Below, piece by piece: positions 16,515 through 41,687 of a stretch of 64,000 nt of DNA; the stretch's first letter is position 1, and each line of letters starts with the position of its first letter. The stretch is from positions 15,670 to 79,669 of the forward strand of contig JAUYHB010000027.1 in the NCBI GenBank assembly GCA_030690305.1, in the 5' to 3' direction. The notes beneath the pieces were generated by a model. The model searched no databases. It was not told the DNA's origin and was given only the letters and a program-made list of their open reading frames with translations. The stretch is from a bacterium (GTDB lineage Bacteria > Patescibacteriota > Minisyncoccia > Phycocordibacterales > JAGLPS01). Both the position numbers and the translations under genes were made by a program.

Positions 16515-18260
16515 ATGCAATCGGAAGAAATACGTTCTCGTTTCCTAAAATTTTTTGAAAAGAAAGGACATGCCATTGTTCCTTCTTCTTCGCTTGTGCC
16601 GCAAAACGACCCTTCGGTTCTTTTTACAACCGCCGGAATGCAGCAATTCAAGCCCTACTATACCGCTCCCGAAAATGCCATCAAAGATTTTGGGAATAAA
16701 AATATTGTGACTGTCCAGAAATGCGTGCGCACCGGGGATATTGATGAAGTGGGAGACGAAACACACCTTACCTTTTTTGAAATGCTCGGTAATTTTTCTT
16801 TCGGCGGATATTGGAAAAAAGAAGCGATTGAATATGCTCATGAATTTATCACCAAAGAACTCGGGCTTTCGATAGATTACGTTTCCGTGTTCAAGGACGA
16901 AGTGAGTGGCATACCTGCCGACGAGGAATCCCGTGCTATTTGGGCTGGAATCGACCCTAATCTTGTAATAAAAGAGCACAATCGTCAGGATAATTTCTGG
17001 GGTCCGACGGGGGACGAGGGTCCTTGCGGTCCGACAACTGAAATTTATGTTAATGGCGTAGAAATTTGGAACATTGTATTCAACGAATACTACAAAACCC
17101 GAGAAGGGAAATATGAACCGCTTGCGGTAAAGGGAATTGATACAGGCATGGGGCTTGAACGTCTTGCGGTACAAGTACAGAAAAAAAATGATGTGTACGA
17201 GACTGATTTGTTTGAACCAATTATTTCTTTAATAAAGCAAAAGAGAGAACAGATTCCCGCTGTTTCTATATTAAAAGGAGATCCTAAAAATGATAGTCGT
17301 GAAGAAAGAATAAATCGTATTTTCACTGATCATTTAAAAACAAGCACCTTTTTAATTTCTGATGGTGTTTTACCAAGTAATAAAGACAAGGGCTATATTT
17401 TGAGAAGACTAATGCGTAGGACTATGGGTGAGACACTTTTAGCCCCATTTCACAAAGAAGCTTTTCAGAAAATTGAAAAAATATATAAAAAAACAAACTA
17501 CAAAATTAATCTTCAGATTGTCATTGAGGTCTATGAAAAAGAGTTGGAAAATTTTAAATCTAATCTGGAGAGGGGATTGAAAGAAATAAATAAGAATATC
17601 AACGCTGGTGGGATTGTTACAGGTCAAGAAGCTTTTAATTATTTCTCCACTTACGGGATACCGAAGGAAATGTTTTTAGATTCAATAAGCCACTTAATTT
17701 ATAGTAAAGATGAGAATTTTGAGCAGGACTATGAATTTTCTTATAAAAGGCACCAAGAACTCTCTCGCACATCGTCTGCGGGAATGTTTAAGGGTGGTCT
17801 TGCTAATCACAACGAGAAAACAATCAAGCACCACACCGCACATCACTTGCTCCTGGCTGCGCTTCAGGAAGTGCTGGGCAAAAGTGTAAAACAGAAGGGA
17901 AGTAATATCACCGAGGAACGTCTGCGTATGGATTTTTCTTTCGAAAGGAAAATGACGGATGAGGAAAAAAAGAAAGTTGAGGAAATCGTAAATAATTATA
18001 TTTCCCAAAATCTTTCCGTGATACGGAAAGAAATGCCCCTTGCAGAGGCGGAGAAAATCGGCGCAGAAATGGAGTTTGGCGCAAAATATCCCGATATTGT
18101 TTCCGTTTATCTTATTGAAGATAAACAAGGCAATCCCATCTCTAAAGAATTTTGCGGCGGACCTCATGTTGAGAACACCGGTATCTTAGGAAAATTTAAA
18201 ATTCTCAAAGAAGAGGCGGTTTCCGCCGGGGTACGCAGGATTAAAGCCGTACTTGAGTAA
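16515..18260 (+). CDS. alaS: alanyl-tRNA synthetase, short form (catalytic, tRNA-recognition and editing domains; no C-Ala domain)
   Basis: N-terminal FTTAGMQQFKP class-II core, DTGMGLERLAV, editing-domain HxxxH (HTAHHLL) and CGGPHV. Only 581 aa. Confidence 0.85.
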   Translation: MQSEEIRSRFLKFFEKKGHAIVPSSSLVPQNDPSVLFTTAGMQQFKPYYTAPENAIKDFGNKNIVTVQKCVRTGDIDEVGDETHLTFFEMLGNFSFGGYWKKEAIEYAHEFITKELGLSIDYVSVFKDEVSGIPADEESRAIWAGIDPNLVIKEHNRQDNFWGPTGDEGPCGPTTEIYVNGVEIWNIVFNEYYKTREGKYEPLAVKGIDTGMGLERLAVQVQKKNDVYETDLFEPIISLIKQKREQIPAVSILKGDPKNDSREERINRIFTDHLKTSTFLISDGVLPSNKDKGYILRRLMRRTMGETLLAPFHKEAFQKIEKIYKKTNYKINLQIVIEVYEKELENFKSNLERGLKEINKNINAGGIVTGQEAFNYFSTYGIPKEMFLDSISHLIYSKDENFEQDYEFSYKRHQELSRTSSAGMFKGGLANHNEKTIKHHTAHHLLLAALQEVLGKSVKQKGSNITEERLRMDFSFERKMTDEEKKKVEEIVNNYISQNLSVIRKEMPLAEAEKIGAEMEFGAKYPDIVSVYLIEDKQGNPISKEFCGGPHVENTGILGKFKILKEEAVSAGVRRIKAVLE

Positions 18261-18379: not shown

Positions 18380-21300
18380 ATGAACGAAAAGTCCACAATA
18401 CAATTTGTCATCTCGGGAGTATTCGTTTTTGCCATGCTTCTCCCAGGCATCGCTTTTTTGGTAGAGCACAAAGATGCTTATGCGGCAGAAAATCCTCTAT
18501 CCCAATTCGTAGAAAATATCGGACAAAGCGGCAAAAGCACGCTTTCTTTTGTTTCCGAAGTGGCGAGAAGCGGAGCGCAACAAGGGGTAAAACAACTCCA
18601 GGAATCCCGCCGAAGAATTTTTGTGCTTTTTGAAAAAAGTCGGGTCCATCTCCGGAATACCTTTGGGGAATTGTATGTCGGTGCTTTCATGCGTGCGCAA
18701 CCCGATTCCAAGGGAAACTTTTTTCTTCGTGCGAATGTTTTCGAAGCAATAGGGGAAATGTTCAATAATCTTTCTATTGGTTTATATAAAGGAGTCAATG
18801 AAATTTTTTCCAGTTTCTTCTCAAGTGAAGAATCATATATCCAGAATAAGGCACCCATAGTACAAGAACCTGTTTCTCCCGCGCCGGTCGCGGAAGAAAA
18901 GGCTGACGAGTCCGCCGCACAAAAAAGCGATTCTTTTCAGGAAACAGCGGAGCAATCCCCGACAGTTGTATATGTTCAGGCTCCACCCAAAACACAACCT
19001 CCTCAAACTGTTACAACTATCATCAAGGAAGTCCCTGCTCCCGACTCTGTTTCCAAAAGCGAATTGGAATCCCGTCTTTCCGCCCTCGCGGCGACGTTGT
19101 TGAGTAAAATTTCTTCAGCCCAAAATACTGCCGTTCAATATTTCTATCCCTCGGTTCCGCAACCTGTTCAACTTCTGAACAAAATAGACAACCTTTCCGG
19201 TGTTACTATCACTTCTTCCTCAATTATCGGTGGAACATGGAGTGATGTTGATATTACAAGCGGTTCAGGGGGTTTCGGAACACTTTCAAGCGATACATTT
19301 TCTAGTGGCGCTGTCACTGTAAGTGGCAGTCTCACATTAAGTACAACAACATCGGGATGTCTTGAGGCAACAAGTAGCGGAGTGGTATGGATTACCGGTA
19401 CCGCTTGCGGAACAGGAAGCGGAGGCGGTTCTTCCTTCGGTCAAGCCTTTGAAATCACCACTAACATTTTCTCCCAAGCTTCTCTCAAGGCAACCTCAAC
19501 AGCCGTTCACAACCTGGTCATTGATGGCACCGGTACATCCACTTTCTCCGGAGGCCTTGAAGTCTGGAGACAAATTGCTGCTCCGTACTTCCAGGCAACA
19601 TCGACCACTATCGCATCACAATTCCCATACGCTTCAACGACGGCACTTACTATCTCGGGTACTGCCTACATTAGTTCTCTCACAGGCCCTCTTCAAGCGC
19701 TGAGTGGTACCGTTTCTGCAACCACAACACTTTCTGCCGCATACGGAGGAACGGGACTCTCGACACTCCCTTCATACGGACAAATTCTCTTAGGTAATGC
19801 GTCAAGCGGATATACCTTAAATGCCACCTCCTCACTTGGCTTTATCGGTGCTGACTACAGAGATTGGAATTTGACCACGAACATCTTTAACCAATCCGTT
19901 CTCGCGCCAACGACAACACAAAACATTCTTGTCTCCGGCACCGGTACCTCCACCTTTGCAGGAAGCATTGAAGCCTGGAGACAAATCGCCGCTCCGTACT
20001 TTCATGCGACTTCTTCTACGGCGACGAGTACGTTTGCGGGGGGACTTACGGTAGATGGTTCAACATTCGTTGTTGACTATTCATCAGGGAATGTGGGCAT
20101 CGGGACGGCAACTACAACTGCCCTTTTCACAGTGTATGGAACAAATCCGATAGCCCACATAAGAAGTTCCAGTCTTAACGATAATGCCAACTCTCCAGCG
20201 ATTGAGCTTACTGAATCTACAGGAACCGAGGACTATGGTTTTCAAATCAAATACCTTGCACAATCAAATCGTTTTGAGATAAATACGGACAGCAGTGGTT
20301 CTAATGGCTTCGGACAGAACGCAGTGTCCATAATGAGAGAGACTCATAATTTTGGTCTTGGTTCCACATCTCCCTACGCCAAATTCTCTGTTGCGGGGAA
20401 AGACACCACTACCACCTTGATAGGAGCGGATGCCGTCTCTGGATTTTCCGGGAACCTTCTTGAACTTAAACTGGCCTCTACTACTGTCTTTATGGTGGAA
20501 GGAGATGGAGATGTACAATTTTTAGATGCTAAAGGAATTTACTTTAATTCTGCGGCCAATGATGCAAATTGGGGTATCGGAAGAAACATTGTGGAAGACA
20601 CCGGTGGGTTTCTCACAAGTAATAACCTTCAGCTAAAAATATACGGCAACTCTACTCCACAGACACAAGGTTTACAGGTAGTGAACCACAACAATGTTGT
20701 GTTGATGGAAATATCGGGGAGTGATGGAAAAACCGTATTTAACGGAAGTGGAAATATAGGTATTGGTACAACTTCACCTTATGCAGTGCTTTCAATACAC
20801 GCAACCTCAACTTCAAATTATGAAAATACCCTTTTTGCTATTGCTTCCTCTACGGCCTCTTTCGCCACCACTACCCACTTTGTTGTTACCGCTGGGGGCA
20901 ACGTCGGCATCAGTACAACAAGTCCGTACGCGAAGTTATCTGTCATCGGGCAAACTGTCGCTGCATACTTTACTGCCACCACAACCTCGGACAACACTTT
21001 CCCAAATCTTCTTTCAACAAATTCAACAACGACAAACGCCACCACCACAACCGCCTCATTCACCACTGCTTCCACAACTAATTTAATTGTCAGCAGTGCG
21101 GGCGGTTCTGCAGGCTGCGCACAATTCAGTATCACAGGCCTTATTTCAAATTCAGGTTCAGCCTGTGGCACGGGCGGAGGATTGTCTTCTTATGACGCTT
21201 GGACACATCCGATAGTGGGGCAATCGGCCACAACTTCTTCGATTGTCGCAGCAGGATTCTTTACAAACTCTAACTCAAACTTCAACGCATCAGTCGGCAT

Positions 21301-22714
21301 CGCATCTTCAACTCCGTGGGCTAAACTCTCCGTCGGTACTCACAACCTCGCCATCGCCACTCCTTCTTTCGTTATTGCTTCTTCTTCAACGGGAGTGGCA
21401 ACGACGACACAATTTATTGTCAAGAATGGTCAGGTAGGCATTGGAGCAACGGCTCCAAATACCGAGAAACTCTATGCCTTTGACAACACAGACTCAACAT
21501 TTGGTGTCATCAGTGCACGCACTGAATCCACTAACTCAGACAATATTGCCATCAATGCTACGGTCGCAGGAGCCGGGACTAATAACATCGCTCTGTATGG
21601 ATGGGCCTCTGATGCAGTAACCAATAACTGGGGTTTGTATATCGAAAGTGGTAACGCACACATTGAAGGCCTTCTTGAAATTGCAACGTTTGCCGCATCT
21701 GATGATAATTCCCGTTGGGTGTGTATCGATGCTTCAGGCGCGTCTACTTTGCAGGCGGGTGTTAACGCTTCCAGTGGCGATTGCGACACTTCCTCTGCCC
21801 GATTTAAACACAATATAGAAACACTTGAAGTCTCGGCTTTGTCCTTGGTTTCCGGGTGGCGACCTGTTTCATTTATATACAATGAGGATCTGGAAGAAAC
21901 AATTATGTGGGGTTTTATCGCGGAGGAAATGGCTTCCAGCAGTCCACAATTGGCATTTTACGATAGTTTAGGTCGTCCCAGAGGACTTCAAAAAAATGCC
22001 ATACTTTCCGTATTGGCCAAAGCGATTCAGGAGCTTAATCTCAACCTGGATAATATTGCCTCTACGACTGCCACATCTACACCGGAATCACAATCATTTG
22101 CAACGAGCTTCTTTAATAATCTCTTCAAGCGATTCACAACATGGTTTGCGGACGCGGCGAATGGCATTGGGGATGTGTTTGCCCGTTCATTCCGCGCAAA
22201 AGAAGAAATTTGTGTGGATGACCAGTGTCTCACGAAAGAGGACGTTCGTTCCCTGCTTACGCTTGCTAACGGCAGCACTGCTTTTGTTGGCGGAGGTAAC
22301 ATTGGCGACGAGGGTGGAAATGTCTCCGGTGACATTTCAGGAAATGGTGGAAACCAAGAGCAAGAAGCCTCCGATACCACTCCTCCTATCATTCTCATCC
22401 AAGGCAATAATCCTGCGGAAATAGCGATAAACACAAGTTACGCCGACCTCGGGGCGTTGATTACTGACGACCAGGACGAAAATCCAACGACGTATACCTA
22501 CCTTAATGGAGCAACCACTACAAGCATTTCAATCGACACATCGGTTGCCGGCACACACACGGTTACATATACCGCGACCGATGACGCTGGAAATACCACG
22601 ACCGTAGAGAGAATTGTAAACATTATGGAAGTGCAGAAAACTGACGATACATCTCCGAACAATAACGCCACGACGACGCAGGAAACCGCAACGTCAACAG
22701 AAAACGTAATATAA
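18380..22714 (+). CDS. giant secreted/surface fibre-like protein (1444 aa) with internal repeats, an internal peptidase-S74 intramolecular-chaperone domain and a C-terminal Ig-like (DUF5011-type) domain
   Basis: N-terminal TM/signal anchor; Ser/Thr/Gly-rich. Repeated NxGIGTxSPYAKLSV-like units (6 or more) and a duplicated GTGTSTF(A/S)G..E.WRQIAAPYF.ATS block. SSARFKHNIE...WGFIAEE...LQKNAILSVLAKAIQEL matches the SDxRxKxNI autoproteolytic chaperone motif of phage tail-fibre/endosialidase C-termini. ...TTPPIILIQGNNPAEIAINTSYADLGALITDD...GTHTVTYTATDDAGNTTTVERIVNI matches the DUF5011 Ig-like fold. Confidence 0.8.
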   Translation: MNEKSTIQFVISGVFVFAMLLPGIAFLVEHKDAYAAENPLSQFVENIGQSGKSTLSFVSEVARSGAQQGVKQLQESRRRIFVLFEKSRVHLRNTFGELYVGAFMRAQPDSKGNFFLRANVFEAIGEMFNNLSIGLYKGVNEIFSSFFSSEESYIQNKAPIVQEPVSPAPVAEEKADESAAQKSDSFQETAEQSPTVVYVQAPPKTQPPQTVTTIIKEVPAPDSVSKSELESRLSALAATLLSKISSAQNTAVQYFYPSVPQPVQLLNKIDNLSGVTITSSSIIGGTWSDVDITSGSGGFGTLSSDTFSSGAVTVSGSLTLSTTTSGCLEATSSGVVWITGTACGTGSGGGSSFGQAFEITTNIFSQASLKATSTAVHNLVIDGTGTSTFSGGLEVWRQIAAPYFQATSTTIASQFPYASTTALTISGTAYISSLTGPLQALSGTVSATTTLSAAYGGTGLSTLPSYGQILLGNASSGYTLNATSSLGFIGADYRDWNLTTNIFNQSVLAPTTTQNILVSGTGTSTFAGSIEAWRQIAAPYFHATSSTATSTFAGGLTVDGSTFVVDYSSGNVGIGTATTTALFTVYGTNPIAHIRSSSLNDNANSPAIELTESTGTEDYGFQIKYLAQSNRFEINTDSSGSNGFGQNAVSIMRETHNFGLGSTSPYAKFSVAGKDTTTTLIGADAVSGFSGNLLELKLASTTVFMVEGDGDVQFLDAKGIYFNSAANDANWGIGRNIVEDTGGFLTSNNLQLKIYGNSTPQTQGLQVVNHNNVVLMEISGSDGKTVFNGSGNIGIGTTSPYAVLSIHATSTSNYENTLFAIASSTASFATTTHFVVTAGGNVGISTTSPYAKLSVIGQTVAAYFTATTTSDNTFPNLLSTNSTTTNATTTTASFTTASTTNLIVSSAGGSAGCAQFSITGLISNSGSACGTGGGLSSYDAWTHPIVGQSATTSSIVAAGFFTNSNSNFNASVGIASSTPWAKLSVGTHNLAIATPSFVIASSSTGVATTTQFIVKNGQVGIGATAPNTEKLYAFDNTDSTFGVISARTESTNSDNIAINATVAGAGTNNIALYGWASDAVTNNWGLYIESGNAHIEGLLEIATFAASDDNSRWVCIDASGASTLQAGVNASSGDCDTSSARFKHNIETLEVSALSLVSGWRPVSFIYNEDLEETIMWGFIAEEMASSSPQLAFYDSLGRPRGLQKNAILSVLAKAIQELNLNLDNIASTTATSTPESQSFATSFFNNLFKRFTTWFADAANGIGDVFARSFRAKEEICVDDQCLTKEDVRSLLTLANGSTAFVGGGNIGDEGGNVSGDISGNGGNQEQEASDTTPPIILIQGNNPAEIAINTSYADLGALITDDQDENPTTYTYLNGATTTSISIDTSVAGTHTVTYTATDDAGNTTTVERIVNIMEVQKTDDTSPNNNATTTQETATSTENVI

Positions 22715-33160: not shown

Positions 33161-33277
33161 CCTCTATACAATTTGGCAAAAATCTGCTATAATTGTGGGT
33201 ATAGTGAAGTATAGGGAAATACAGAGTATTCAGAGTGGATTATTGATGATTCTTTCATTTATATTTTAAGTATTGTC

Positions 33278-33305
33278 TAAAACGCCTTTATGGGCGTTTT
33301 TTGTT
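33278..33305 (+). terminator. rho-independent terminator after dnaJ
   Basis: AAAACGCC-tttat-GGGCGTTTT hairpin followed by TTGTTT. Confidence 0.65.
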
Positions 33306-33311
33306 TAATAC

Positions 33312-34082
33312 ATGGCAACAAGTTTAGCTACAAAACCAAAATTAAGGGCGGTACCGGAGATATTTGCCGTGGCTGATTTTCAGGAAGAACAGAAATTTCT
33401 TCCGGCGTACCGTTTATTCCCGACAATTTTTCAGGCGTTTCTCACTCCCGTTATGCGCCTGTTTTTTTACATATTCGGAAGAATTGAAATAAAAGGTCTT
33501 GAAAATCTTAAACATATTCCTCACGGTGTGATTCTCGCCTCAAACCACATTAGCGAACTCGACCCTATTATTATTCCGGCTGTGCTACCGCTGTCTTCCC
33601 GTTTACGGCCTCTTTTCTTCACCTCCAGGCAACGAAAAACATACGTCCATAATCCTCGTTTTAGCTGGCGTGGTTATTTTTACGGAGGCTTATTGTTTAA
33701 ACTTCTTGGTGGGTATCCGGTTATAATCGGTATTCACAATTATGAGCAATCTCTTGCCGCGCATATCAAACTTGTTGACGAGGGCCGCACTGTTGTTATT
33801 TTCCCTGAAGGAACACGAACGCGCGACGGTAATTTGCGGGAAGCCAAAGGGGGAGTGGCGTATCTTGCGTACAGAACCAATGCTCCAATCGTCCCGATTT
33901 CAATTGACGGGTTATATAACATAAACCTTTTTGAGCTTCTTACGTTCAAAAGAAAAATAAAAATTTCTTTCGGAAAACCTTTTTTTGTCATGGATATTTT
34001 ACCTTCGCGAGAAGTTGAAATTCACGACTTCCATATTGCCGCCCAGGAAGTGATGAAGAAGATTAAAGAATTAAAGGGCTAA
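33312..34082 (+). CDS. plsC: lysophospholipid (1-acyl-sn-glycerol-3-phosphate) acyltransferase family protein
   Basis: NHISELD (HX4D) and FPEGTRTRDG acyltransferase motifs. Confidence 0.8.
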   Translation: MATSLATKPKLRAVPEIFAVADFQEEQKFLPAYRLFPTIFQAFLTPVMRLFFYIFGRIEIKGLENLKHIPHGVILASNHISELDPIIIPAVLPLSSRLRPLFFTSRQRKTYVHNPRFSWRGYFYGGLLFKLLGGYPVIIGIHNYEQSLAAHIKLVDEGRTVVIFPEGTRTRDGNLREAKGGVAYLAYRTNAPIVPISIDGLYNINLFELLTFKRKIKISFGKPFFVMDILPSREVEIHDFHIAAQEVMKKIKELKG

Positions 34083-34084
34083 AT

Positions 34085-34789
34085 ATGTTGGACACAAGAT
34101 TCTGGAAAAAATATTTCGAAGTATACGACCTACTCAATATCCTCGAGCCGTATCAGACACTGCTTCAAGATATCCGTGAACCCCTTGGCGAGATAGAAGG
34201 AATGAAAATTCTTGATGCGGGAGCTGGAACTGGTAACTTGGCGATTTTGCTTTCCCGAGAGGGTGCCGACGTTGTCGCTCTTGATTTTTCACAGGAAGGA
34301 CTTGGAAAATATCTTGAGAAATTTCCCTCGGGAAAAACTGTGCTTCATGACCTCACAGAACCGCTTCCGTTCGATTCCGAAACCTTTGACACTATTGTCT
34401 CGAATAATACGATTTACACTTTACCTAAAGAAACTCGTCCGTATGCATTTAAAGAGTTTTACCGAATTTTGAAACGAGGTGGAAAAATTGTCGTTTCAAA
34501 CGTGCATACTGGCTTTAAACCGATAAAAATTTATTTTGCCCACATTGGATGGAGTTTAAAAAACAAAGGTTTGGGGAAAACCATGGGGGAAGTGCTAAGT
34601 CTCTTAGTGCCGACAATGAAGATTTTTTACTATAATTCTCTTATCATAAAAGAGCATAAAGGTAATAATTTTGCTTTTATAGGCGAAAATGAGCAGAAAG
34701 AACTCCTCGAAAGCACGTTTTTCAAAGAAATTTCTCAAAACAAGTCCACGTATGCCAATCAGGCAATCCTTAATCACGCGATAAAATAA
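34085..34789 (+). CDS. class I SAM-dependent methyltransferase
   Basis: ILDAGAGTGNLAILL motif I and downstream motif II/III spacing. Confidence 0.75.
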   Translation: MLDTRFWKKYFEVYDLLNILEPYQTLLQDIREPLGEIEGMKILDAGAGTGNLAILLSREGADVVALDFSQEGLGKYLEKFPSGKTVLHDLTEPLPFDSETFDTIVSNNTIYTLPKETRPYAFKEFYRILKRGGKIVVSNVHTGFKPIKIYFAHIGWSLKNKGLGKTMGEVLSLLVPTMKIFYYNSLIIKEHKGNNFAFIGENEQKELLESTFFKEISQNKSTYANQAILNHAIK

Positions 34790-34843
34790 GCCATTCTAAA
34801 ATGGCTTGTTTTCTAATACAATTTACCTAATTCTCCAAGAGCT

Positions 34844-35596
34844 ATGAAGATTTACAAAAAACTTAAATTAGCAATAAAAGAAGGAGAAAAAGAAGTTATC
34901 TTTGGTGAAACTGAAACTGTAGATGAACTAAAACAAGTTTATGAATTCCGTTTTAAAGAATATTCGAGAAAAGGGTATATCATTCCCTCCCAGTTTCCCG
35001 ACAATCAAGAAAGTGACGAGTATGATAAATCTAGAAAATGTAAGTATTTTGTAGCAATTGTAGATAATAAAATTATTGGAACAGTTCGTCTTATCATTAC
35101 TGACCCTCTTCCTACGGAGAGTGTTTATCATTTTATCGAACCCGTTGAAATGCTAAAAATTCCTCGTGACAGAAGAGGGGAGCTGGGACGTCTGATTATT
35201 GTTCCCTTAGACCGTGAGAAGAAAATCTATCTTCCAAGAGGTCTCGTTCTACTTATGATGTTGGATATGTTGGCTGATTATGGTACACGAAATAATATTC
35301 AGGGAGGGTATGCATTTATTAAAAAAAGTCTTGAGCAAAAAATGAAATTACTCCGTTTTCCTTTTAATCCTATTAAAAAATTTGAATATATTGATTTAGC
35401 GACCAACACTATTCGTAATTATTTTCATCAACCTAATGACCCTGCCTTACCAATTTTTTATTTGACTGTGGATTTTAAAAAATATATTTCAAAAATTATT
35501 TATAATCCGTGGTTGTTCAAAAAAGAAAAAGATAACACCCTAATTCTTAGAAAAAACCTATATTCTTTTTTCCTCAAGGTTCTAGGGATAATTTAA
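34844..35596 (+). CDS. GNAT-fold N-acyltransferase of the autoinducer-synthase-like (LuxI/FeeM N-acyl amino acid synthase) type
   Basis: ...VYEFRFKEYSRKGYIIPSQFPDNQESDEYDKSRKCKYFVAIVDNKIIGTVRLII... and ...ELGRLIIVP... resemble the R-x-x-VF/E-x-D-x-D and GxxRL/ExSRL blocks of LuxI/FeeM-type acyl synthases. AT-rich gene. Confidence 0.55.
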   Translation: MKIYKKLKLAIKEGEKEVIFGETETVDELKQVYEFRFKEYSRKGYIIPSQFPDNQESDEYDKSRKCKYFVAIVDNKIIGTVRLIITDPLPTESVYHFIEPVEMLKIPRDRRGELGRLIIVPLDREKKIYLPRGLVLLMMLDMLADYGTRNNIQGGYAFIKKSLEQKMKLLRFPFNPIKKFEYIDLATNTIRNYFHQPNDPALPIFYLTVDFKKYISKIIYNPWLFKKEKDNTLILRKNLYSFFLKVLGII

Positions 35597-35623
35597 GTTA
35601 TAATGAAAGGAATAATAATTTAA

Positions 35624-37186
35624 ATGGAAAATTTGATTGTACCAATTTTATATATCGTGGTGGCAGTTAATGTTATTCTCGCTTTTGTTATTTTCTCTCG
35701 AGGTCTTAAGAATTTAAAAAATCTTCTTTTTGCACTGATTGCTCTTACGACAGCAATATGGAGCGTTGCTATTATAGGTTTTTTTTCACCAGAATATCGA
35801 AGTTTTTTTGAGTGGATACGTCTAACCCACATCTCCGCTCTTTTAATTGCATTTGTGTTTTTTCATTTTTCGTTAGTTTTTCCTCAAAAAGTCTACAGAA
35901 GTTCATTGATAGCTTATTTATTCAGCATACCCTGCTTGGTTGCTTTATACTTTTTGTTTTTTACAAATCTGATAGTGAGTAACAGTGGTACAGGTGTCGC
36001 ATACGGCATTGAGGGTGGTTATATATTTTATGGCTTACTTTTGACATTCTACTTTTTCTCTGGTTATTTTTTCTTAGACGTCCAGTATAAACGCGCAAAA
36101 ACCGAAGAACAAAAAGGTCAAGTGAAGTATGTTTTTATTGGTTCCTTACTTACTTCTGCACTAGCCATAGTACCTGATTTAATTTTCCCTTTTTTTAAAA
36201 TTTTTGATTATACATGGTTAGGCCCGATATTCACCTTATTTTTAGTCGTGTCAATCTTTATTGCCATGGTTAGATTCCAGCTTTTCAATATTAGAATCAT
36301 TTTAACTGAGCTTTTTACAGGAGTAATTATCATTGTAATGATGATAGATTTATTCCTTTCAAGCTCTACCTTCGACCTATTAGTAAAATCAGGGATATTG
36401 GTATTAATTACATTTTTTGGTTTCTTATTAATAAAAAGTGTTTATAGGGAGGTTGAACAGAGAGAACATATTGAAAAACTGGCGGGGGAGCTTGAGGAGG
36501 CCAACAGACGCCAGGAGAGCCTTCTGCACTTCATAGGGCATGAAATCAAGGGATACTTCACCAAGAGCCACTGGGCGCTTTCCTCAATGATTGACGGAGA
36601 CTACGGAGAAATTGCTCCTGATTTAAAGATGCTTACCACCCAGGCCCTAGACGACACCAGGCAGGGCATTGATATGGTTGATGGTATTTTAAAGGCTGGT
36701 AATTTTAAAAAAGGGACAGTGAGTTTCAACATGAAGCCTTTCGATTTCAAGGGCGAGCTTAACAATGTTATTGGGATGCTTAAGCCTAATATTGAGACGA
36801 AAAAACTGGCCCTCCAACTTAATATTGACGAAAACCAGGATTATACGCTAAATGGCGACGGAGAGCAGATAAGCAAGCACGTCCTAAGAAATCTTATTGA
36901 TAACGCGATTAAATACACGCCTTCCGGAACCATTACAATCAGCCTTTCAAAGAAAGACAGCAAAATTCTTTTCTCTGTTAAAGATTCTGGGGTAGGAATT
37001 AAAGAAGAAGATAGAAAATTGCTGTTTACCGAAGGTGGACGAGGCAAGGATTCGGTAAAAATAAACGTCCACAGCACCGGCTACGGCCTCTTTATCGCAA
37101 AACAAATTGTAGACGCCCACAAAGGGCGCATTTGGGCTGATTCTACCGGCCCCAATCAGGGCTCCACTTTCTCTATAGAGATTTAA
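35624..37186 (+). CDS. sensor histidine kinase with an N-terminal 7-TM-like membrane domain; no adjacent response regulator
   Basis: About 7 hydrophobic helices (aa 1-280), HisKA H-box LHFIGHEIKGY, HATPase_c N/G boxes (LIDNAIKYT, VKDSGVGI, GTGYGLFIAKQIV...GSTFSIEI). Confidence 0.85.
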   Translation: MENLIVPILYIVVAVNVILAFVIFSRGLKNLKNLLFALIALTTAIWSVAIIGFFSPEYRSFFEWIRLTHISALLIAFVFFHFSLVFPQKVYRSSLIAYLFSIPCLVALYFLFFTNLIVSNSGTGVAYGIEGGYIFYGLLLTFYFFSGYFFLDVQYKRAKTEEQKGQVKYVFIGSLLTSALAIVPDLIFPFFKIFDYTWLGPIFTLFLVVSIFIAMVRFQLFNIRIILTELFTGVIIIVMMIDLFLSSSTFDLLVKSGILVLITFFGFLLIKSVYREVEQREHIEKLAGELEEANRRQESLLHFIGHEIKGYFTKSHWALSSMIDGDYGEIAPDLKMLTTQALDDTRQGIDMVDGILKAGNFKKGTVSFNMKPFDFKGELNNVIGMLKPNIETKKLALQLNIDENQDYTLNGDGEQISKHVLRNLIDNAIKYTPSGTITISLSKKDSKILFSVKDSGVGIKEEDRKLLFTEGGRGKDSVKINVHSTGYGLFIAKQIVDAHKGRIWADSTGPNQGSTFSIEI

Positions 37187-37202
37187 CCTGAAGTGGTTTT
37201 TC

Positions 37203-37231
37203 TTGACAAAGCAAGAAAAAGATTATATTAT
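37203..37231 (+). promoter_or_regulatory. near-consensus sigma-70 promoter for the rSAM-peptide operon, followed by a palindrome
   Basis: TTGACA - 17 nt - TATTAT; downstream GTCTTTG-ACA-AAAGAC inverted repeat (37245-37260) and AAAGGAGG RBS before ATG 37295. Confidence 0.6.
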
Positions 37232-37294
37232 ATGAGGAAGTTGGTCTTTGACAAAAGACTTTTGAATCTCTAGACAGAAAGGAGGATAGATGAC

Positions 37295-38350
37295 ATGAGT
37301 TCATTCCAAGTGAAAATTGTTGGTGATTTCTGTAACATCCGTTGTACATATTGCAGAAACCGTGACTTTGATCAAGATACGAATGTTTTGATGTCTGTGG
37401 CCAATCTAGAAAAACTTTTTGTTTTTCTAGATTCGTTACCACAAGCACGAATTCGTGTGAATTGGCACGGGGGCGAGCCATTGCTGGCAGGAAAAAAGTT
37501 TTTCCATCATATCTTGAGACTGGAAAACCAATATAAGCAAAAAATATGGATGAATGCTGTTCAGACAAATGCCATGTTGATTGATGATGATTGGGCTAAA
37601 CTTTTCCATGATAACCACTTTGATATCGGAGTAAGTATTGATGGAAGTGAACAAACGCATAACAGTGACAGAATAAATGTTGCTGGACGTGGAACATATA
37701 AGGAAGCGATGCGTGGTGTGGAAGCTCTTCGTCATAATAGCATTCATCCCGGCGTTATCTGTACTGTTACTAAAAAGACTGTCAGATACGCAAAAGAGAT
37801 GCTTCTTGATCTAGTGGATGCTGGGTTTAAAAGCATTGCTTTCAATGCTTTCTATAACACAGCGTCAGATTGTGATGGTGATACGTACGGACTAACAGAC
37901 ACAGAATGGCTGGCGTTTCTCATAGAAATATTTGAAACGTGGCTCGTACTTAATGATCCCACAATTCGTGTTCGCGAGTTGGATAGCATGCTTGCATGGA
38001 CCAAATCAAAAAGTGCTAATTCTTGCGTGTATAAAGGTACCTGTTATCAGTGGTTCGCTATCCATTACACTGGCGACATTTATCCTTGTGAAAGGCTGGG
38101 TAAATCTACCCATTTTGGAAGTATTGACTCCCTGAGAACTTTTCAGGACTTAGTGAATACTCCTGTTTTCCTTAATTGGAAAGAGTCAATTGGCCAACTT
38201 CCTCAAAGGTGTCGCACTTGCAGTTTGCAGTCATTGTGTCATAATGGTTGCGTTAGCCATCGGAAAGCAGATGAAGAGGGGGTGCCTCTTTACAGGTATT
38301 GTGAAAGTAGGCTCGGTTTCTATGATTACATCAAGGAAAGACTTAAATGA
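37295..38350 (+). CDS. radical SAM enzyme with a C-terminal SPASM domain (peptide-maturase type)
   Basis: CNIRCTYC (CX3CX2C) radical-SAM cluster motif. C-terminal auxiliary-cluster cysteines CVYKGTC...YPCE...CRTCSLQSLCHNGC are typical of SPASM (anSME/PqqE/MftC/AlbA-like) enzymes. Confidence 0.85.
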   Translation: MSSFQVKIVGDFCNIRCTYCRNRDFDQDTNVLMSVANLEKLFVFLDSLPQARIRVNWHGGEPLLAGKKFFHHILRLENQYKQKIWMNAVQTNAMLIDDDWAKLFHDNHFDIGVSIDGSEQTHNSDRINVAGRGTYKEAMRGVEALRHNSIHPGVICTVTKKTVRYAKEMLLDLVDAGFKSIAFNAFYNTASDCDGDTYGLTDTEWLAFLIEIFETWLVLNDPTIRVRELDSMLAWTKSKSANSCVYKGTCYQWFAIHYTGDIYPCERLGKSTHFGSIDSLRTFQDLVNTPVFLNWKESIGQLPQRCRTCSLQSLCHNGCVSHRKADEEGVPLYRYCESRLGFYDYIKERLK

Positions 38351-38365
38351 AAGGGGGTAAGGACC

Positions 38366-38551
38366 ATGTCACGTAAGAGTAGTTCTTTAGTTAATGAACG
38401 GCAGTCATCGCTATCTGGAAATCTCGCGCTTCAAGGTTCATTTAGCCGGATTGAGGATGGTAGTCGTTTTTCATCAAAAATACCGGAAGTCACGAATTAC
38501 GATGACTATCAGTATTCCGATTGCGACTACGATGACAGTGGAAAAAACTGA
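38366..38551 (+). CDS. putative RiPP precursor peptide (61 aa) with a Tyr/Asp-rich C-terminal core
   Basis: ATG 15 nt after the rSAM stop with AAAGGGGGT RBS. Sequence MSRKSSSLVNERQSSLSGNLALQGSFSRIEDGSRFSSKIPEVTNYDDYQYSDCDYDDSGKN. A strong terminator follows. Confidence 0.55.
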   Translation: MSRKSSSLVNERQSSLSGNLALQGSFSRIEDGSRFSSKIPEVTNYDDYQYSDCDYDDSGKN

Positions 38552-38574
38552 CACGAAGTAAGTTTTTAGTTAGC

Positions 38575-38610
38575 CAAGAGCGGGTTTGCAAAAACCCGCT
38601 CTTTTTTTTA
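38575..38610 (+). terminator. strong rho-independent terminator ending the rSAM-peptide operon
   Basis: GAGCGGGTTT-gca-AAACCCGCTC hairpin followed by TTTTTTTT. Confidence 0.75.
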
Positions 38611-38623
38611 ATATGAATACATT

Positions 38624-39409
38624 GTGAATAAAGATTTGTTAATGTCTTATGATCAGTACTCGAAAATTAAGCATGAAACTCCATATTTTTACATTGCCAA
38701 ATCAACAAAACAATCAATCTACTATTTTGGTTCCAGTCATTCCCATGATCCCAATCATCCGCAATTTGAATTATTAAAAGCGAAATGGAACGAATTTCTT
38801 GATGAAACTAAGGGACTGAAAACAGTAGTTCTTGTAGAAGCACATGAAATGCCAGAGCCAGAAGCTACACTGGAAAAAGAAATTATTAAACATGGTGAGT
38901 CAGGTGCGGGAGCCTATCTAGCGTATAAAAATAAGGCGCTGCTTATCTTTGGAGAACCTCAAAACGATAAAATAATTGTCCATCTGCTTCAATATTTTTC
39001 TAAAGAAGAGATTCTTTTTTGGTATGAATGCCAAGCTATAAAATTTTGGCAGCAACACAAAAAGGGAAGAAGCATACATGAATTTCTTTCAAATCATACT
39101 GAGAAATATCGTAAATTATTTAAATGGCCGGATTTGGTTATATCTTTAGAACTTGTTAATTCGATATATAAAAAATTATTTAATCAAGAGTTGAATATTG
39201 ATGACGAAGAATTATTCTCTCAAATTACCACTCCAATAACTGTTTTATCAAGAATTAATGAATTGTCCAGAAGCCAATCTATCTACAGAAATGAGCAGAT
39301 ATTGGTGCAAATAGAAAAATATTGGAAAGAGGGAAGTAATATTTTTGTTATCTATGGTGCTGGTCATGCGGTTATGCAGGAATCCGCCATCCGTAGTTTA
39401 GTTGGCTAG
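38624..39409 (+). CDS. TraB/GumN (Tiki-like) family protein, putative metalloprotease
   Basis: N-terminal ...IYYFGSSHSHDPNHP... and C-terminal ...FVIYGAGHAVMQESAIRSLVG match the two conserved GxxH blocks of TraB/GumN/Tiki proteins. GTG start; very AT-rich. Confidence 0.55.
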   Translation: MNKDLLMSYDQYSKIKHETPYFYIAKSTKQSIYYFGSSHSHDPNHPQFELLKAKWNEFLDETKGLKTVVLVEAHEMPEPEATLEKEIIKHGESGAGAYLAYKNKALLIFGEPQNDKIIVHLLQYFSKEEILFWYECQAIKFWQQHKKGRSIHEFLSNHTEKYRKLFKWPDLVISLELVNSIYKKLFNQELNIDDEELFSQITTPITVLSRINELSRSQSIYRNEQILVQIEKYWKEGSNIFVIYGAGHAVMQESAIRSLVG

Positions 39410-39432
39410 ACAATTCTTAAGGAATATATTTA

Positions 39433-39903
39433 ATGATACTACGACAAAGAGTAGCTGCGATTGTGGTTAAAGAAGATACGGTGCTTCTAATGCATCGTAT
39501 TAATGATGGAAAGGAATATTATTCTTTTCCTGGTGGTGGCAAGGAAGAAAATGAAAGTCTAGAAACAGGAGCGCTTCGAGAACTTTCTGAAGAAACGACA
39601 GTTGATGCAATAATTGACCGTTTGGTGTATAAGGTTATATGGGATAGCGGTGATGAGAACTACTTCTATCTTTGTAATTACATTTCAGGAGAACCAAAAC
39701 TAAGAGAGGATGCCGAAGAGCTAAAAGAGATGGCTGACGGAAAACAGGCGTATAAGCCGGAATGGGTTTATATTTCCGATTTACCCAACACCCTTTTATA
39801 TCAGTTAGAAATCAGAGATTTACTTATAAAAGACTTAAAAAATGGCTTTCTCGAACATCCTCAAGAACTCTTTATAAAAGTTGAAGAAAGACGTCGGATA
39901 TAA
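39433..39903 (+). CDS. Nudix hydrolase
   Basis: Nudix box GGGKEENESLETGALRELSEETTV. Confidence 0.8.
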   Translation: MILRQRVAAIVVKEDTVLLMHRINDGKEYYSFPGGGKEENESLETGALRELSEETTVDAIIDRLVYKVIWDSGDENYFYLCNYISGEPKLREDAEELKEMADGKQAYKPEWVYISDLPNTLLYQLEIRDLLIKDLKNGFLEHPQELFIKVEERRRI

Positions 39904-39908
39904 ATTAA

Positions 39909-40664
39909 ATGAAAGAAAATACTTCATGGGGAAATGTTGCGGATTGGTATGATACGCACCTTGAACAGGGCGGGGATACGTATCAGCGCAAAGTAATATT
40001 GCCGAATTTGCTTCGGGTGCTTGATTTGAAAGCGGGGGAAAGCGTGCTTGATTTAGCCTGCGGGCAGGGATTTTTCTCCCGTGAATTCGCAAATGCCGGT
40101 GCCAAGGTCATTGGGACCGACATTTCAAAGGAACTTATTGGGTACGCACAAGAACATTCTCCCAAAGAAATTACTTTTCATGTTTCTCCCGCCGACAATC
40201 TTTCTTTCGCTAAAGATGCTGAATTTGATGTGGTTACGATTATTCTTGCAATTCAAAATATTGAAAATATTTCGGGAGTTTTTTCTGAAGTAAAACGTGT
40301 TCTTTCTCCGCAAGGCGGGCTAATCATGGTGCTCAACCACCCGGCATTTAGAATCCCGAAGCAATCGGAATGGGGATGGGACGAGGAAAAGCAAATTCAG
40401 TACCGCAGAATCGACCGCTATCTTTCTCCTCAAAAAATTTCCATTGAAATGCATCCGGGGGAAGAAAAAGGGGAGCAAACGATTTCTTACCACCGTTCCT
40501 TACAGGACTTTTTCAAAGCATTGTCCAAAAACGGTTTTGCAATATCCAAACTTGAAGAATGGATTTCCCACAGAGAAAGCCAGGAAGGCCCGCGTCAGAA
40601 AGCGGAAGACACCGCCCGCAAAGAAATCCCGCTATTTCTGATGCTTGAGGCTAAAAAGATGTAG
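39909..40664 (+). CDS. class I SAM-dependent methyltransferase
   Basis: VLDLACGQGFFSREFA motif I, acidic motif II (GTDIS), IMVLNHPAF. Confidence 0.75.
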   Translation: MKENTSWGNVADWYDTHLEQGGDTYQRKVILPNLLRVLDLKAGESVLDLACGQGFFSREFANAGAKVIGTDISKELIGYAQEHSPKEITFHVSPADNLSFAKDAEFDVVTIILAIQNIENISGVFSEVKRVLSPQGGLIMVLNHPAFRIPKQSEWGWDEEKQIQYRRIDRYLSPQKISIEMHPGEEKGEQTISYHRSLQDFFKALSKNGFAISKLEEWISHRESQEGPRQKAEDTARKEIPLFLMLEAKKM

Positions 40665-41285
40665 TTGGTATTCTCAAACAAAAAATCTTGTATGTCACAC
40701 AATGTATCGTGGGAAAAATATATTAAGAAAACCGAGTCAAACCCACCCCGAGTTTTACTTACTGAAGCAGTAGAACATGTGCGGAATAAAGATGAGGCTC
40801 TTGATTTGGGAGCTGGAGCAATGAACGATTCAAAATACCTTTTATCAGTTGGTTTTAAACATGTAACGGCAATTGACAGTGATATCGCTGCCCAAGAAAA
40901 GGCAAAAGACATCTTAGGAGATAAGTTTTCTTTTTTCTTAAGTAGCTTTGAAAATTTTTCTTTTCCTCATGAGACGTATGACTTGATAAATGCTCAGTAC
41001 GCTTTACCGTATAATTCTCCAAAAACATTTAACAGTTTAATAAAGAACATTACTCTCTCACTTAAACCTAAAGGTGTGTTTGCAGGTCAACTATTTGGTA
41101 ATAAAGATTCTTGGAATACTGAAAACAGTGGTAAAACCTTTCATACAAAAGAAGAGGCTGAAAAGTTATTTTTAGATTTTAAGATAATCAAATTTATAGA
41201 GGAAGAAAATGATAAACCGAGTGTTCTTGGAAAACCAAAACATCAACACCTGTTTAATTTTATAGTTTCAAAACCAGAAAAATAA
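40665..41285 (+). CDS. class I SAM-dependent methyltransferase (small, TehB/TPMT-like size)
   Basis: ALDLGAGAMNDSKYL motif I and AIDSD motif II. Begins immediately after the previous stop (TTG at 40665 or ATG at 40692); AT-rich. Confidence 0.65.
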   Translation: MVFSNKKSCMSHNVSWEKYIKKTESNPPRVLLTEAVEHVRNKDEALDLGAGAMNDSKYLLSVGFKHVTAIDSDIAAQEKAKDILGDKFSFFLSSFENFSFPHETYDLINAQYALPYNSPKTFNSLIKNITLSLKPKGVFAGQLFGNKDSWNTENSGKTFHTKEEAEKLFLDFKIIKFIEEENDKPSVLGKPKHQHLFNFIVSKPEK

Positions 41286-41316
41286 AAAGAGCAGAGAAAA
41301 AATCTCTGCTCTTTAG
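41286..41316. terminator. bidirectional terminator between convergent genes
   Basis: AAAGAGCAGAG-aaaaaat-CTCTGCTCTTT hairpin. Confidence 0.6.
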
Positions 41317-41331
41317 TAAATGGGAGGGGGA

Positions 41332-41553
41332 TTAATTTAACCAGGAAAGCCATAACGGAGATGTTGACGCTTTCAATTTCTTTTCATTCCAGCGGGGAAT
41401 GTGTCTTTGCCCGACCCACGACATATCGTGGAAAAACTGGGCACGGGCTCTTTCTGTTGTGGCCACTTCTTTGGGAGAAGCGACCTTGGTGCAGGCCCTG
41501 TGTGGCCTTTCAGCCTGGGCAATGTCTTCCATAATTCTGGTCCTTAAACTCAT
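41332..41553 (-). CDS. small Trp-rich hypothetical protein (73 aa)
   Basis: Start chosen at the ATG preceded by AAAAAGGAGGATATATG (minus strand), not the longer 41628 ORF; consensus promoter upstream. Confidence 0.5.
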   Translation of the reverse strand: MSLRTRIMEDIAQAERPHRACTKVASPKEVATTERARAQFFHDMSWVGQRHIPRWNEKKLKASTSPLWLSWLN

Positions 41554-41599
41554 ATATCCTCCTTTTTGAAGGTGCAAAAACTTTTCTAACCTAATTCTA

Positions 41600-41629
41600 A
41601 TTATACTATTATTTTTATGTAAAGTCAAG
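41600..41629 (-). promoter_or_regulatory. consensus sigma-70 promoter (minus strand) for the 41332..41553 gene
   Basis: Reverse complement reads TTGACT - 18 nt - TATAAT. Confidence 0.55.
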
Positions 41630-41687
41630 GCACTTATTATCTTTTTGCTTTCAAAAAAGGCCTTATTTTGGTATTATTTCTCCATAT

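Follow-up and report, generated by a model that had tools for sequence, protein, structure and literature searches.

A ten-gene interval between dnaJ and trpS

The 64-kb stretch of DNA analysed here (the window) derives from a member of the Patescibacteria/Paceibacterota, and its contig is also present in the public run SRR13727534. At positions 33312-41285 it carries ten close-packed genes, all on the + strand, with dnaK-dnaJ upstream and trpS-aspS-scpA downstream. They include a GNAT-type predicted acyl-amino synthase, a methyltransferase dependent on S-adenosylmethionine (SAM), a histidine kinase with a seven-transmembrane (7TM) type input domain and a radical SAM unit for a ribosomally synthesised and post-translationally modified peptide (RiPP). 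We propose, tentatively, that the locus pairs a synthase of a lipophilic N-acyl amino signal with a receptor kinase in the membrane, and that the RiPP unit next to them is of the thioether type. An original prediction, made from the letters and their open reading frames (ORFs), had described an 8-kb run of such genes between dnaJ and trpS, and the ten genes were found with nearly all of the domains predicted for them. Genes and sites are as follows.

33165-33193: promoter-like site upstream of the dnaJ-side hairpin (consensus scan)
33279-33300, + strand: terminator-like hairpin after dnaJ (9-bp stem with 4 G-C pairs, then a T run)
33312-34082, + strand: PlsC-type acyltransferase (256 aa; PF01553, 71.9 bits)
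34085-34789, + strand: MT1, class I SAM methyltransferase (234 aa; Pfam Methyltransf_25/11)
34844-35596, + strand: GNAT, LuxI/FeeM branch (250 aa; PF21926 FeeM, 40.6 bits)
35624-37186, + strand: histidine kinase, whole gene (HisKA_7TM, 35.7 bits; HATPase_c, 83.5 bits)
35624-36430, + strand: polytopic membrane (HisKA_7TM, PF16927) input domain of the kinase
36431-37186, + strand: cytoplasmic dimerisation and histidine phosphotransfer (DHp) and catalytic core of the kinase (HATPase_c)
37203-37231, + strand: promoter-like site ahead of the radical SAM gene (TTGACA-17-TATTAT, 11/12 consensus matches)
37295-38350, + strand: radical SAM/SPASM peptide maturase (351 aa; PF04055, PF13186, PF13353)
38366-38551, + strand: ORF of a 61-aa putative precursor peptide (homologous ORFs in the same position)
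38576-38603, + strand: strong intrinsic terminator directly 3' of the precursor gene (12-bp stem with 6 G-C pairs, T8)
38624-39409, + strand: conserved 261-aa protein, no fold assigned, third gene of the radical SAM unit
39433-39903, + strand: Nudix hydrolase (156 aa; PF00293, 49.6 bits)
39909-40664, + strand: MT2, class I SAM methyltransferase (251 aa; family scan)
40665-41285, + strand: MT3, class I SAM methyltransferase (206 aa; family scan)
41286-41314, no strand assigned: palindromic terminator-like hairpin between MT3 and trpS, at the end of the stretch (12-bp stem)

The promoter and terminator entries are consensus matches and are to be read as such, not as functional evidence. The hairpin at 33279-33300 appears to divide the chaperone operon from the accessory stretch. 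Only 2-54 bases separate the acyltransferase, MT1, GNAT and kinase genes, and the 261-aa, Nudix, MT2 and MT3 genes follow one another at 0-23 bases in a run that ends at the hairpin at 41286-41314. The layout suggests three transcription units: 33312-37186 (unit 1), 37295-38551 with the 261-aa gene (unit 2) and Nudix-MT2-MT3 (unit 3). The sole ORF in the 400-bp gap between MT3 and trpS (41286-41687) encodes 98 aa on the minus strand and has no family match.

The GNAT and its methyltransferase partner

The match of the GNAT to the Pfam FeeM family lies well above the cut-off of 27 bits and covers profile positions 1-103 of 158. PF13444 is just reached (22.6 bits, cut-off 22.4), and other members of the GNAT family also carry PF13444 matches. 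The score for the PEP-CTERM/exosortase-associated family TIGR03694 is 43.5 bits, under the cut-off of 111.95, and the NCBIfam models of OlsB/GlsB give no match at E<0.01. An AlphaFold2 model of the protein (predicted local distance difference test score, pLDDT, 87.7) was compared with the PDB by Foldseek, and the top matches of the GNAT branch are the N-acyl-homoserine lactone (AHL) synthases BjaI, LasI, MesI, RpaI, EsaI and TofI (entries 5w8g, 1ro5, 6wns, 6wn0, 1k4j and 3p2h; E 1.6e-8 to 3e-6) together with FeeM (2g0b_C, E 2.7e-6), which has the highest target-normalised template modelling (TM) score of the branch, 0.72. Conserved in LuxI-type AHL synthases are an Arg, an Asp-x-x-Asp pair, a further Arg, a Glu-x-x-Arg pair and a Trp in the SAM pocket. 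Profile alignment of the GNAT to RpaI retains R36, E56/D58/D61, R82 and E113/R116. Judged by its modelled fold and these profiles the protein belongs to the LuxI/FeeM branch, as originally predicted, and is not an unrelated acetyltransferase.

The contexts of GNAT homologues, together with a metagenome scan, yielded about 15 distinct Patescibacteria-like loci (designated by L numbers; P numbers designate proteins). Their GNATs are only 40-49% identical to that of the window, and in all of them an MT1 orthologue adjoins the GNAT, in either order, within flanks that vary (ligA with ftsW/rpoB in L082, dnaJ with trpS in L083). An exhaustive profile search places the GNAT family in 122 representative clusters at E<=1e-30. 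The two activities also occur as natural fusions, GNAT-MT in P0160 and P0172 and MT-GNAT in P0251, and P0172 shares 49% identity with MT1 over its C-terminal half. These fusions show the GNAT and the methyltransferase to be parts of a single pathway. The best PDB matches of the MT1 family profile are phosphoethanolamine N-methyltransferases (78 bits), and LahSB and CypM, both peptide methyltransferases, are matched by it as well.

The acyltransferase, with its HX4D (NHISELD) and FPEGTR motifs, is a frequent third component: homologues lie in or beside the GNAT-MT module in about 7 of 11 loci, and stand next to the GNAT-MT-kinase set in L082, L083, L087, L093 and L101. No acyl carrier protein was found in the window or the module loci.

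Two further contexts bear on the substrate. P0233 (617 aa) combines a GNAT of this family with a class I/II aminotransferase domain in one chain, and in L097 a class III aminotransferase directly precedes MT-GNAT-kinase, which suggests that a pyridoxal phosphate enzyme supplies the amine substrate in some lineages. The most distant homologue, P0008 (34% identity), occurs in a context that is not Patescibacteria-like (L084-L086), where its neighbours are a mandelate racemase-like gene, a LytTR two-component system and a sigma-54 activator and where no methyltransferase or 7TM kinase is adjacent.

A polytopic histidine kinase of probable mosaic structure

Of the genes around the GNAT-methyltransferase pair, the 7TM kinase is the most constant, directly adjoining the pair in 10 of 13 informative loci and being present in the locus in all 13. 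The kinase had been described as an orphan; this holds in that no response regulator is adjacent, but not in the sense of an isolated gene. Residues 9-223 of the window kinase match HisKA_7TM (cut-off 28.6 bits), and hydropathy indicates about 8-9 hydrophobic segments without a large extracytoplasmic loop. The ATP-binding N, G1 and G2 boxes of HATPase_c are retained. The phospho-acceptor His lies in a variant H-box, FIGHEIKG, in keeping with which the Pfam HisKA model does not match the window kinase; this His is retained in 17/17 aligned kinases, among which two H-box types occur.

The membrane and cytoplasmic parts of the kinase differ in composition. GC content at third codon positions (GC3) is 0.29 in the membrane part, close to that of the GNAT gene, vs 0.49 in the cytoplasmic part, close to that of the backbone; along the gene it runs at about 0.2-0.4 through the membrane domain and then at 0.5-0.6, with the jump at codons 260-280. 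Hydrophobicity as the cause of the low GC3 was ruled out by two hydrophobic backbone genes with values of 0.47-0.50. In a comparison of 9-10 loci, which share ancestry, the pairwise identities of the membrane domain track those of the GNAT (r 0.46, p 0.004) and MT1 (r 0.39, p 0.015) and show no correlation with those of the kinase's own core (r 0.02), mean identity being 42% for the membrane domain vs 36% for the core. The kinases of L089 (5174-6760) and L091 (9877-11470) are 87% identical in the membrane domain and 7-43% beyond it, with 80% identity between the methyltransferases beside them and 46% between the GNATs. On these alignments the pair reads as a clean domain swap at the membrane/DHp junction. 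Co-divergence, the L089/L091 break, the H-box types and the GC3 jump together point to recombination at this junction, evidence that for so small a sample is suggestive rather than conclusive.

The radical SAM peptide unit

Unit 2 comprises three conserved genes, the maturase, the putative precursor and the 261-aa protein, rather than the two of the RiPP unit first proposed. The maturase scores 60.2 bits for PF04055 and 27 bits for PF13186 (cut-off 21.5), and has both the CX3CX2C cluster motif (CNIRCTYC) and a CX2CX5CX3C SPASM motif. The 272 homologues detected for it, many of them 60-92% identical, come from a Paceibacteria lineage where the organism is named. It lies below every curated family cut-off, at 230.5 bits for the anaerobic sulfatase maturases (anSME, TIGR03942; cut-off 349.45), 183 for DynA (450) and 147 for PapB (NF047865; 340). 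The motif of sulfatase-type maturation is C/S-x-P/A-x-R, and it is absent from the 61-aa precursor; this absence and the score under the cut-off rule out membership of the anaerobic sulfatase maturases.

The precursor ATG is preceded by a purine-rich, Shine-Dalgarno-like stretch, and the peptide consists of a leader (..ALQGSFSRIE..SRFS..IP.V) and an acidic, aromatic core, NYDDYQYSDCDYDD. Homologues occupy the same position in L103/L107-109, L104/105, L106 and L110-112. The leader ALQ.AF.RIE..SRFS and the acidic, aromatic core are common to the precursors, and a C-x3-D motif is invariant in 5/5 distinct sequences. The order radical SAM-precursor-261-aa gene is kept in four further distinct contexts, with a third gene of 255-261 aa, and a 7TM kinase is found within about 3.5 kb of the unit in 5/5 contexts, a methyltransferase being also close. 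Thus in L104 the order is M16 peptidase, radical SAM, precursor, 261-aa gene, acyltransferase, methyltransferase and kinase; in L106 dnaJ, acyltransferase, alpha-oxoamine synthase, radical SAM, precursor, 261-aa gene, a 277-aa gene and two kinases; and in L110 radical SAM, precursor, 261-aa gene, DUF6624, methyltransferase, kinase and trpS-aspS-scpA.

Homologues of the 261-aa protein (42-75% identity) follow the precursor in all homologous loci. Its AlphaFold2 model is of high score (pLDDT 94.5), and a search of the PDB with the model returns no fold match (best E 0.25, TM 0.24), as the family profile returns only chance-level matches against PDB sequences. There is one strong match, to the uncharacterised protein A0A3G4ZS86 of Edafosvirus, a giant virus (E 3.5e-9, TM 0.76). 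Invariant His, Glu and Arg columns in the family hint at a possible metal site. The TraB-like label given to this protein is not borne out: TraB/PrgY/GumN (PF01963) scores 16.8 bits vs a cut-off of 26.8 and over the last 38 residues only, and a viral 'TraB family protein' matches the model at only E 0.19 and TM 0.21.

A precedent for the peptide chemistry exists in PapB, which cross-links Cys to the beta-carbon of Asp within CX3D motifs (PMC9413430). Given this precedent and the invariant C-x3-D, a single Cys-Asp thioether ring is the most economical prediction for the precursor, and by this analogy the most likely one. The unit is an uncurated radical SAM RiPP family whose 261-aa partner has a fold without a solved relative; in the literature we found nothing specific to it.

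The interval in related genomes

The window DnaJ has its best match among GTDB representatives at 72% identity, and in 80 dnaJ-centred loci from GTDB representative genomes grpE-dnaK-dnaJ and trpS-aspS-scpA recur as syntenic flanks. The gap between dnaJ and trpS is about 0.1 kb at its shortest (L062, L003) and about 9 kb at its longest (L008, L028). A profile search for the GNAT within 10 kb of dnaJ found it in 0 of these 80 genomes. Among the same loci a PlsC acyltransferase lies directly 3' of dnaJ in L013, L014, L016, L019 and L025, as homologues also adjoin dnaJ in L083 and L106, and a 7TM kinase lies directly 5' of trpS in L008, L014, L024 and L028. That both placements recur in relatives lacking the GNAT indicates that the frame of the locus is ancestral, and the dnaJ-trpS position is a variable hotspot bounded by two recurrent genes. 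In L025 and L106 the slot before the 7TM kinase is filled by an alpha-oxoamine synthase of the BioF/Kbl/serine palmitoyltransferase (SPT)/CqsA family, an alternative acyl-amino enzyme in the same slot (the stretches concerned are 16240-20084 in L025, where an amidohydrolase follows it, and 3665-9785 in L106). In L013 the slot holds an acyltransferase, an alpha/beta hydrolase and a HAD hydrolase.

Unit 3 differs from this pattern. Its Nudix protein lies above the PF00293 cut-off of 21.1 bits and has a near-canonical Nudix box, GGKEENESLETGALRELSEETTV, and neither it nor MT3 has a homologue in the 111 other fetched loci, where MT2 only cross-matches MT1 orthologues at 28-32% identity. From these searches the Nudix-MT2-MT3 tail appears to be the idiosyncratic part of the stretch, a genome-specific cargo. 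The interval is therefore best described as two conserved, lineage-typical modules with an idiosyncratic tail. Of the accessory island originally proposed, variability between relatives is retained, there being no uniform core gene order across them, and an arbitrary collection of mixed origin is not.

The region has a GC content of 37.7% vs 45.3 +/- 2.6% in 43 backbone genes, and mean GC3 is 0.337 inside vs 0.471 +/- 0.043 outside (Mann-Whitney p = 4e-6). GC is lowest in the GNAT (31.3%), MT3 (32.7%) and 261-aa (33.2%) genes and highest in MT2 (44.6%, near backbone) and the acyltransferase (42.0%). The mixed composition and AT-rich genes noted at the outset are thus real, though the backbone is at about 45% GC and not 48-50%. 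In 10 of 11 other genomes the module is likewise AT-richer than its own flanks, so low GC is a property of the module and no proof of recent import. As such proof it is also ruled out within the window by a housekeeping gene of low GC, that of alanyl-tRNA synthetase (16515-18260; GC 39.5%, GC3 0.37), which encodes only 581 aa. Direct repeats resembling attachment sites do not flank the stretch beyond chance-level short matches, and family scans of the ten genes gave no integrase or transposase domain, which together rule out an integrative mobile element.

A candidate synthase-receptor pair

The strongest regularity in these data is the coupling of an acyl-amino synthase and a methyltransferase to the polytopic input domain of a kinase, as in known synthase-receptor pairs, and it is this that leads us to favour a signal with its receptor. 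We hold the reading tentatively, at somewhat less than even odds. The interval would then be a signalling locus typical of Paceibacteria-type Patescibacteria, in three transcription units. In unit 1 the GNAT and its obligate partner MT1 would produce a lipophilic, methylated N-acyl amino acid or amine, which might receive a second acyl chain from the PlsC-type acyltransferase. The kinase would detect this product, or the membrane state that it creates, inside its polytopic membrane domain and signal to a response regulator encoded elsewhere. Unit 2 would be a ribosomal peptide cassette in which the maturase links the conserved Cys to the Asp four residues downstream, most likely giving a ranthipeptide-type thioether, with the 261-aa protein as an accessory factor, possibly the leader peptidase. 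A bolder version, which we consider rather unlikely, makes the GNAT, the methyltransferase and the 7TM domain a self-contained cassette that is shuffled horizontally among Patescibacteria onto varied kinase cores and encodes, in pherotype-like fashion, the synthase of a methylated N-acyl amino signal of a new class and its receptor, the thioether peptide being a second signal at the locus. It would serve communication in bacteria that are ultra-small and depend on hosts.

Several observations weigh against the signal-receptor reading. The GNAT scores 22.8 bits for Autoind_synth (PF00765), under the cut-off of 24, even if other family members pass it (P0172 28.4 bits, P0233 25.9), and the position of the RpaI Trp is Tyr45 in all eight GNAT family members. 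Four probes detected no receiver domain in the 64-kb window or in the module loci, the co-divergence comes from few loci of common descent, and the curated family nearest to the maturase is the anaerobic sulfatase maturases, not PapB. The product, the ligand and the phosphotransfer partner are predictions.

The enzyme types of unit 1 also count against a signal, as they correspond to OlsB, OlsA and OlsG and by this analogy would fit a structural membrane lipid equally well. In such an account, the main rival, which we regard as rather unlikely, unit 1 would serve to make a membrane aminolipid: in the role of OlsB/GlsB, the GNAT would transfer a (hydroxy)fatty acid to the nitrogen of an amino acid, the PlsC-type enzyme, as OlsA/GlsA, would add the second chain and MT1, as OlsG, would N-methylate the head group, giving a phosphorus-free lipid from scavenged fatty acids, and the kinase would monitor or regulate membrane composition and not a diffusible signal. 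All three enzyme classes are present, and the contact of the GNAT family with PF13444, the PlsC catalytic motifs and frequent proximity of the acyltransferase, and the kinship of MT1 to amine N-methyltransferases of lipid head-group precursors all suit this account, and for OlsG itself a kinship with phospholipid N-methyltransferases has been described (PMC12971839). The lipid-type enzymes that precede the kinase in L013, and the SPT-like alpha-oxoamine synthase in L025 and L106, agree with it too. However, the acyltransferase is far from the curated equivalogs (OlsF 16.4 bits, cut-off 620; GlsA 15.2 bits, cut-off 260), no OlsB/GlsB model recognises the GNAT, and the acyltransferase is a less constant partner of GNAT-MT than the kinase and adjoins dnaJ also in relatives without the GNAT. 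The text of a 2026 review of aminolipids never mentions a histidine kinase (PMC12971839), and the patchiness of the module, absent from the 80 related representative genomes, is more in keeping with an accessory trait than with a bulk lipid. The alternatives of signalling and lipid modification were both named in the original prediction, and the comparative data fit that pair.

Units 1 and 2 may alternatively share one substrate, since radical SAM and peptidase-like genes lie beside GNAT-MT in four loci, a further point against the reading as a separate signal and peptide. The single pathway would yield a ribosomal lipopeptide, modified by the radical SAM enzyme, N-acylated by the GNAT, methylated by MT1 and sensed by the 7TM kinase, and we think this very unlikely. 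The radical SAM maturases concerned are less than about 3 kb from GNAT-MT (the window, L091/92, L094 and L095) and are accompanied by MA-type peptidase-like or ABC genes, the unit invariably has a methyltransferase and a 7TM kinase in its vicinity, and the peptide methyltransferases among the MT1 profile matches are also in its favour. Yet most GNAT-MT-kinase loci have housekeeping flanks and no radical SAM or precursor gene nearby (L082, L083, L093, L097, L101), a GNAT is missing from the vicinity of most radical SAM units (L103, L104, L106, L110), and the radical SAM enzymes near GNAT-MT are of different subfamilies (23-24% identity); the aminotransferases of P0233 and L097 point rather to a small amine substrate. 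We give equally little credence to a recent horizontal island of unrelated accessory genes, without shared function and with the low GC of a foreign donor. Such an island is what GC3 (0.34 vs 0.47 in the backbone), the lack of counterparts to Nudix and MT3 and the variable gap among relatives would lead one to expect, but both modules recur with their internal order kept in many genomes, the module exceeds its flanks in AT content in 10 of 11 other genomes, the acyltransferase and kinase are common to relatives at this position, repeats and mobility domains are lacking as described above, and the alanyl-tRNA synthetase gene has low GC too.

By current understanding, Patescibacteria are host-attached cells of minimal metabolism that synthesise little lipid themselves. 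A compact, conserved module for an acylated and methylated amino compound, with a membrane sensor included, would give a concrete handle on communication of these cells with hosts or with one another or, alternatively, on how membranes are built from fatty acids that the cells scavenge. Since the genes are short, they could be expressed heterologously, and the signal and aminolipid readings are both directly testable. A 2024 study states that candidate synthase genes for the compounds that it treats had not been found (PMC11580390).

Other features of the window

Five tRNA genes (Val-CAC, Pro-CGG, Ala-CGC, Pro-GGG and Ala-GGC) lie at the start of the window, at 1192-1852. A 1444-aa protein encoded at 18380-22714, with an unusually high GC at second codon positions (0.51), has a Peptidase_S74 intramolecular chaperone domain and a bacterial surface Ig-like domain, which suggests a large surface fibre or adhesin. 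At the other end, from about 62500, GC is low (33-37%), and the AT-rich gene at 62605-63909 on the minus strand (35.5% GC) has weak AAA_21/SMC_N ATPase matches.

Relation to known systems

The window GNAT shares its sub-fold with the FeeM and LuxI enzymes (2g0b, 1ro5, 5w8g and 6wn0; Foldseek E 1e-8 to 1e-6) and the aligned R, D, D, R, E and R positions. It differs from them in being about 50-60 residues longer, in an identity of only 12-20% and in the pairing or fusion of its family with a methyltransferase, which is not a known feature of the FeeM or LuxI families. LuxM/LuxN, CqsA/CqsS, LqsA/LqsS and PhcB/PhcS are quorum-sensing pairs of a synthase and a polytopic receptor kinase, and PhcB, encoded beside the histidine kinase PhcS, is a methyltransferase. 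The window resembles these pairs in the adjacency of synthase and kinase and in a kinase whose only input is a multi-helix membrane domain. Unlike them it has no nearby response regulator or phosphotransfer domain, and its kinase is not by sequence a member of those receptor families and has a signal that is predicted.

With the OlsB/OlsA (GlsB/GlsA) and OlsG pathways the locus has in common a GNAT N-acyltransferase, a PlsC-type O-acyltransferase and a SAM methyltransferase (PMC12971839). It departs from them in that the curated OlsF and GlsA models are far above its acyltransferase, which reaches only the generic PlsC family, and in the kinase, which has no counterpart there and is more constant than the acyltransferase. 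As in the PapB/PapA system of freyrasin, a radical SAM/SPASM maturase lies beside a small Cys-X3-Asp precursor (PMC9413430). The window precursor has one such motif vs six in PapA, the maturase is nearer to the anaerobic sulfatase maturases (230 bits) than to PapB (147 vs 340 bits), and the constant 261-aa partner and the Patescibacteria host are further differences.

Closest to unit 1 are pairs already published. Bernard et al. (mSystems, 2020) list 36 LuxI homologues in genomes of the Candidate Phyla Radiation (CPR), 18 of them beside a sensor kinase (PMC7567580), so that the description of such genes as unusual for a reduced genome was overstated. The same survey reports 51 CqsA-homologue/kinase pairs and PlsC-type 'HdtS' homologues, and reads all of them as quorum sensing (PMC7567580). 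The organisms are of the same kind (Vogel-, Nomura- and Giovannonibacteria are listed), the enzymes are of the same GNAT branch with the LuxI residues kept and an aromatic residue replacing Trp, and a membrane sensor kinase is adjacent. Unlike our reading, the survey interprets the enzymes as AHL synthases, and the word methyltransferase is absent from its text and supplements (PMC7567580). We found nothing specific in the literature on N-acyl amino acid synthases in Patescibacteria. The synthase-kinase pair is thus already known as a bioinformatic observation. What appears to be new, from sequence comparison, is the obligate methyltransferase partner and its fusions, the frequent PlsC partner, the co-divergence of the membrane domain with the enzymes and the swapping of kinase cores, and equally the radical SAM-precursor-261-aa unit with its link to the same kinases and the structure of the dnaJ-trpS hotspot.

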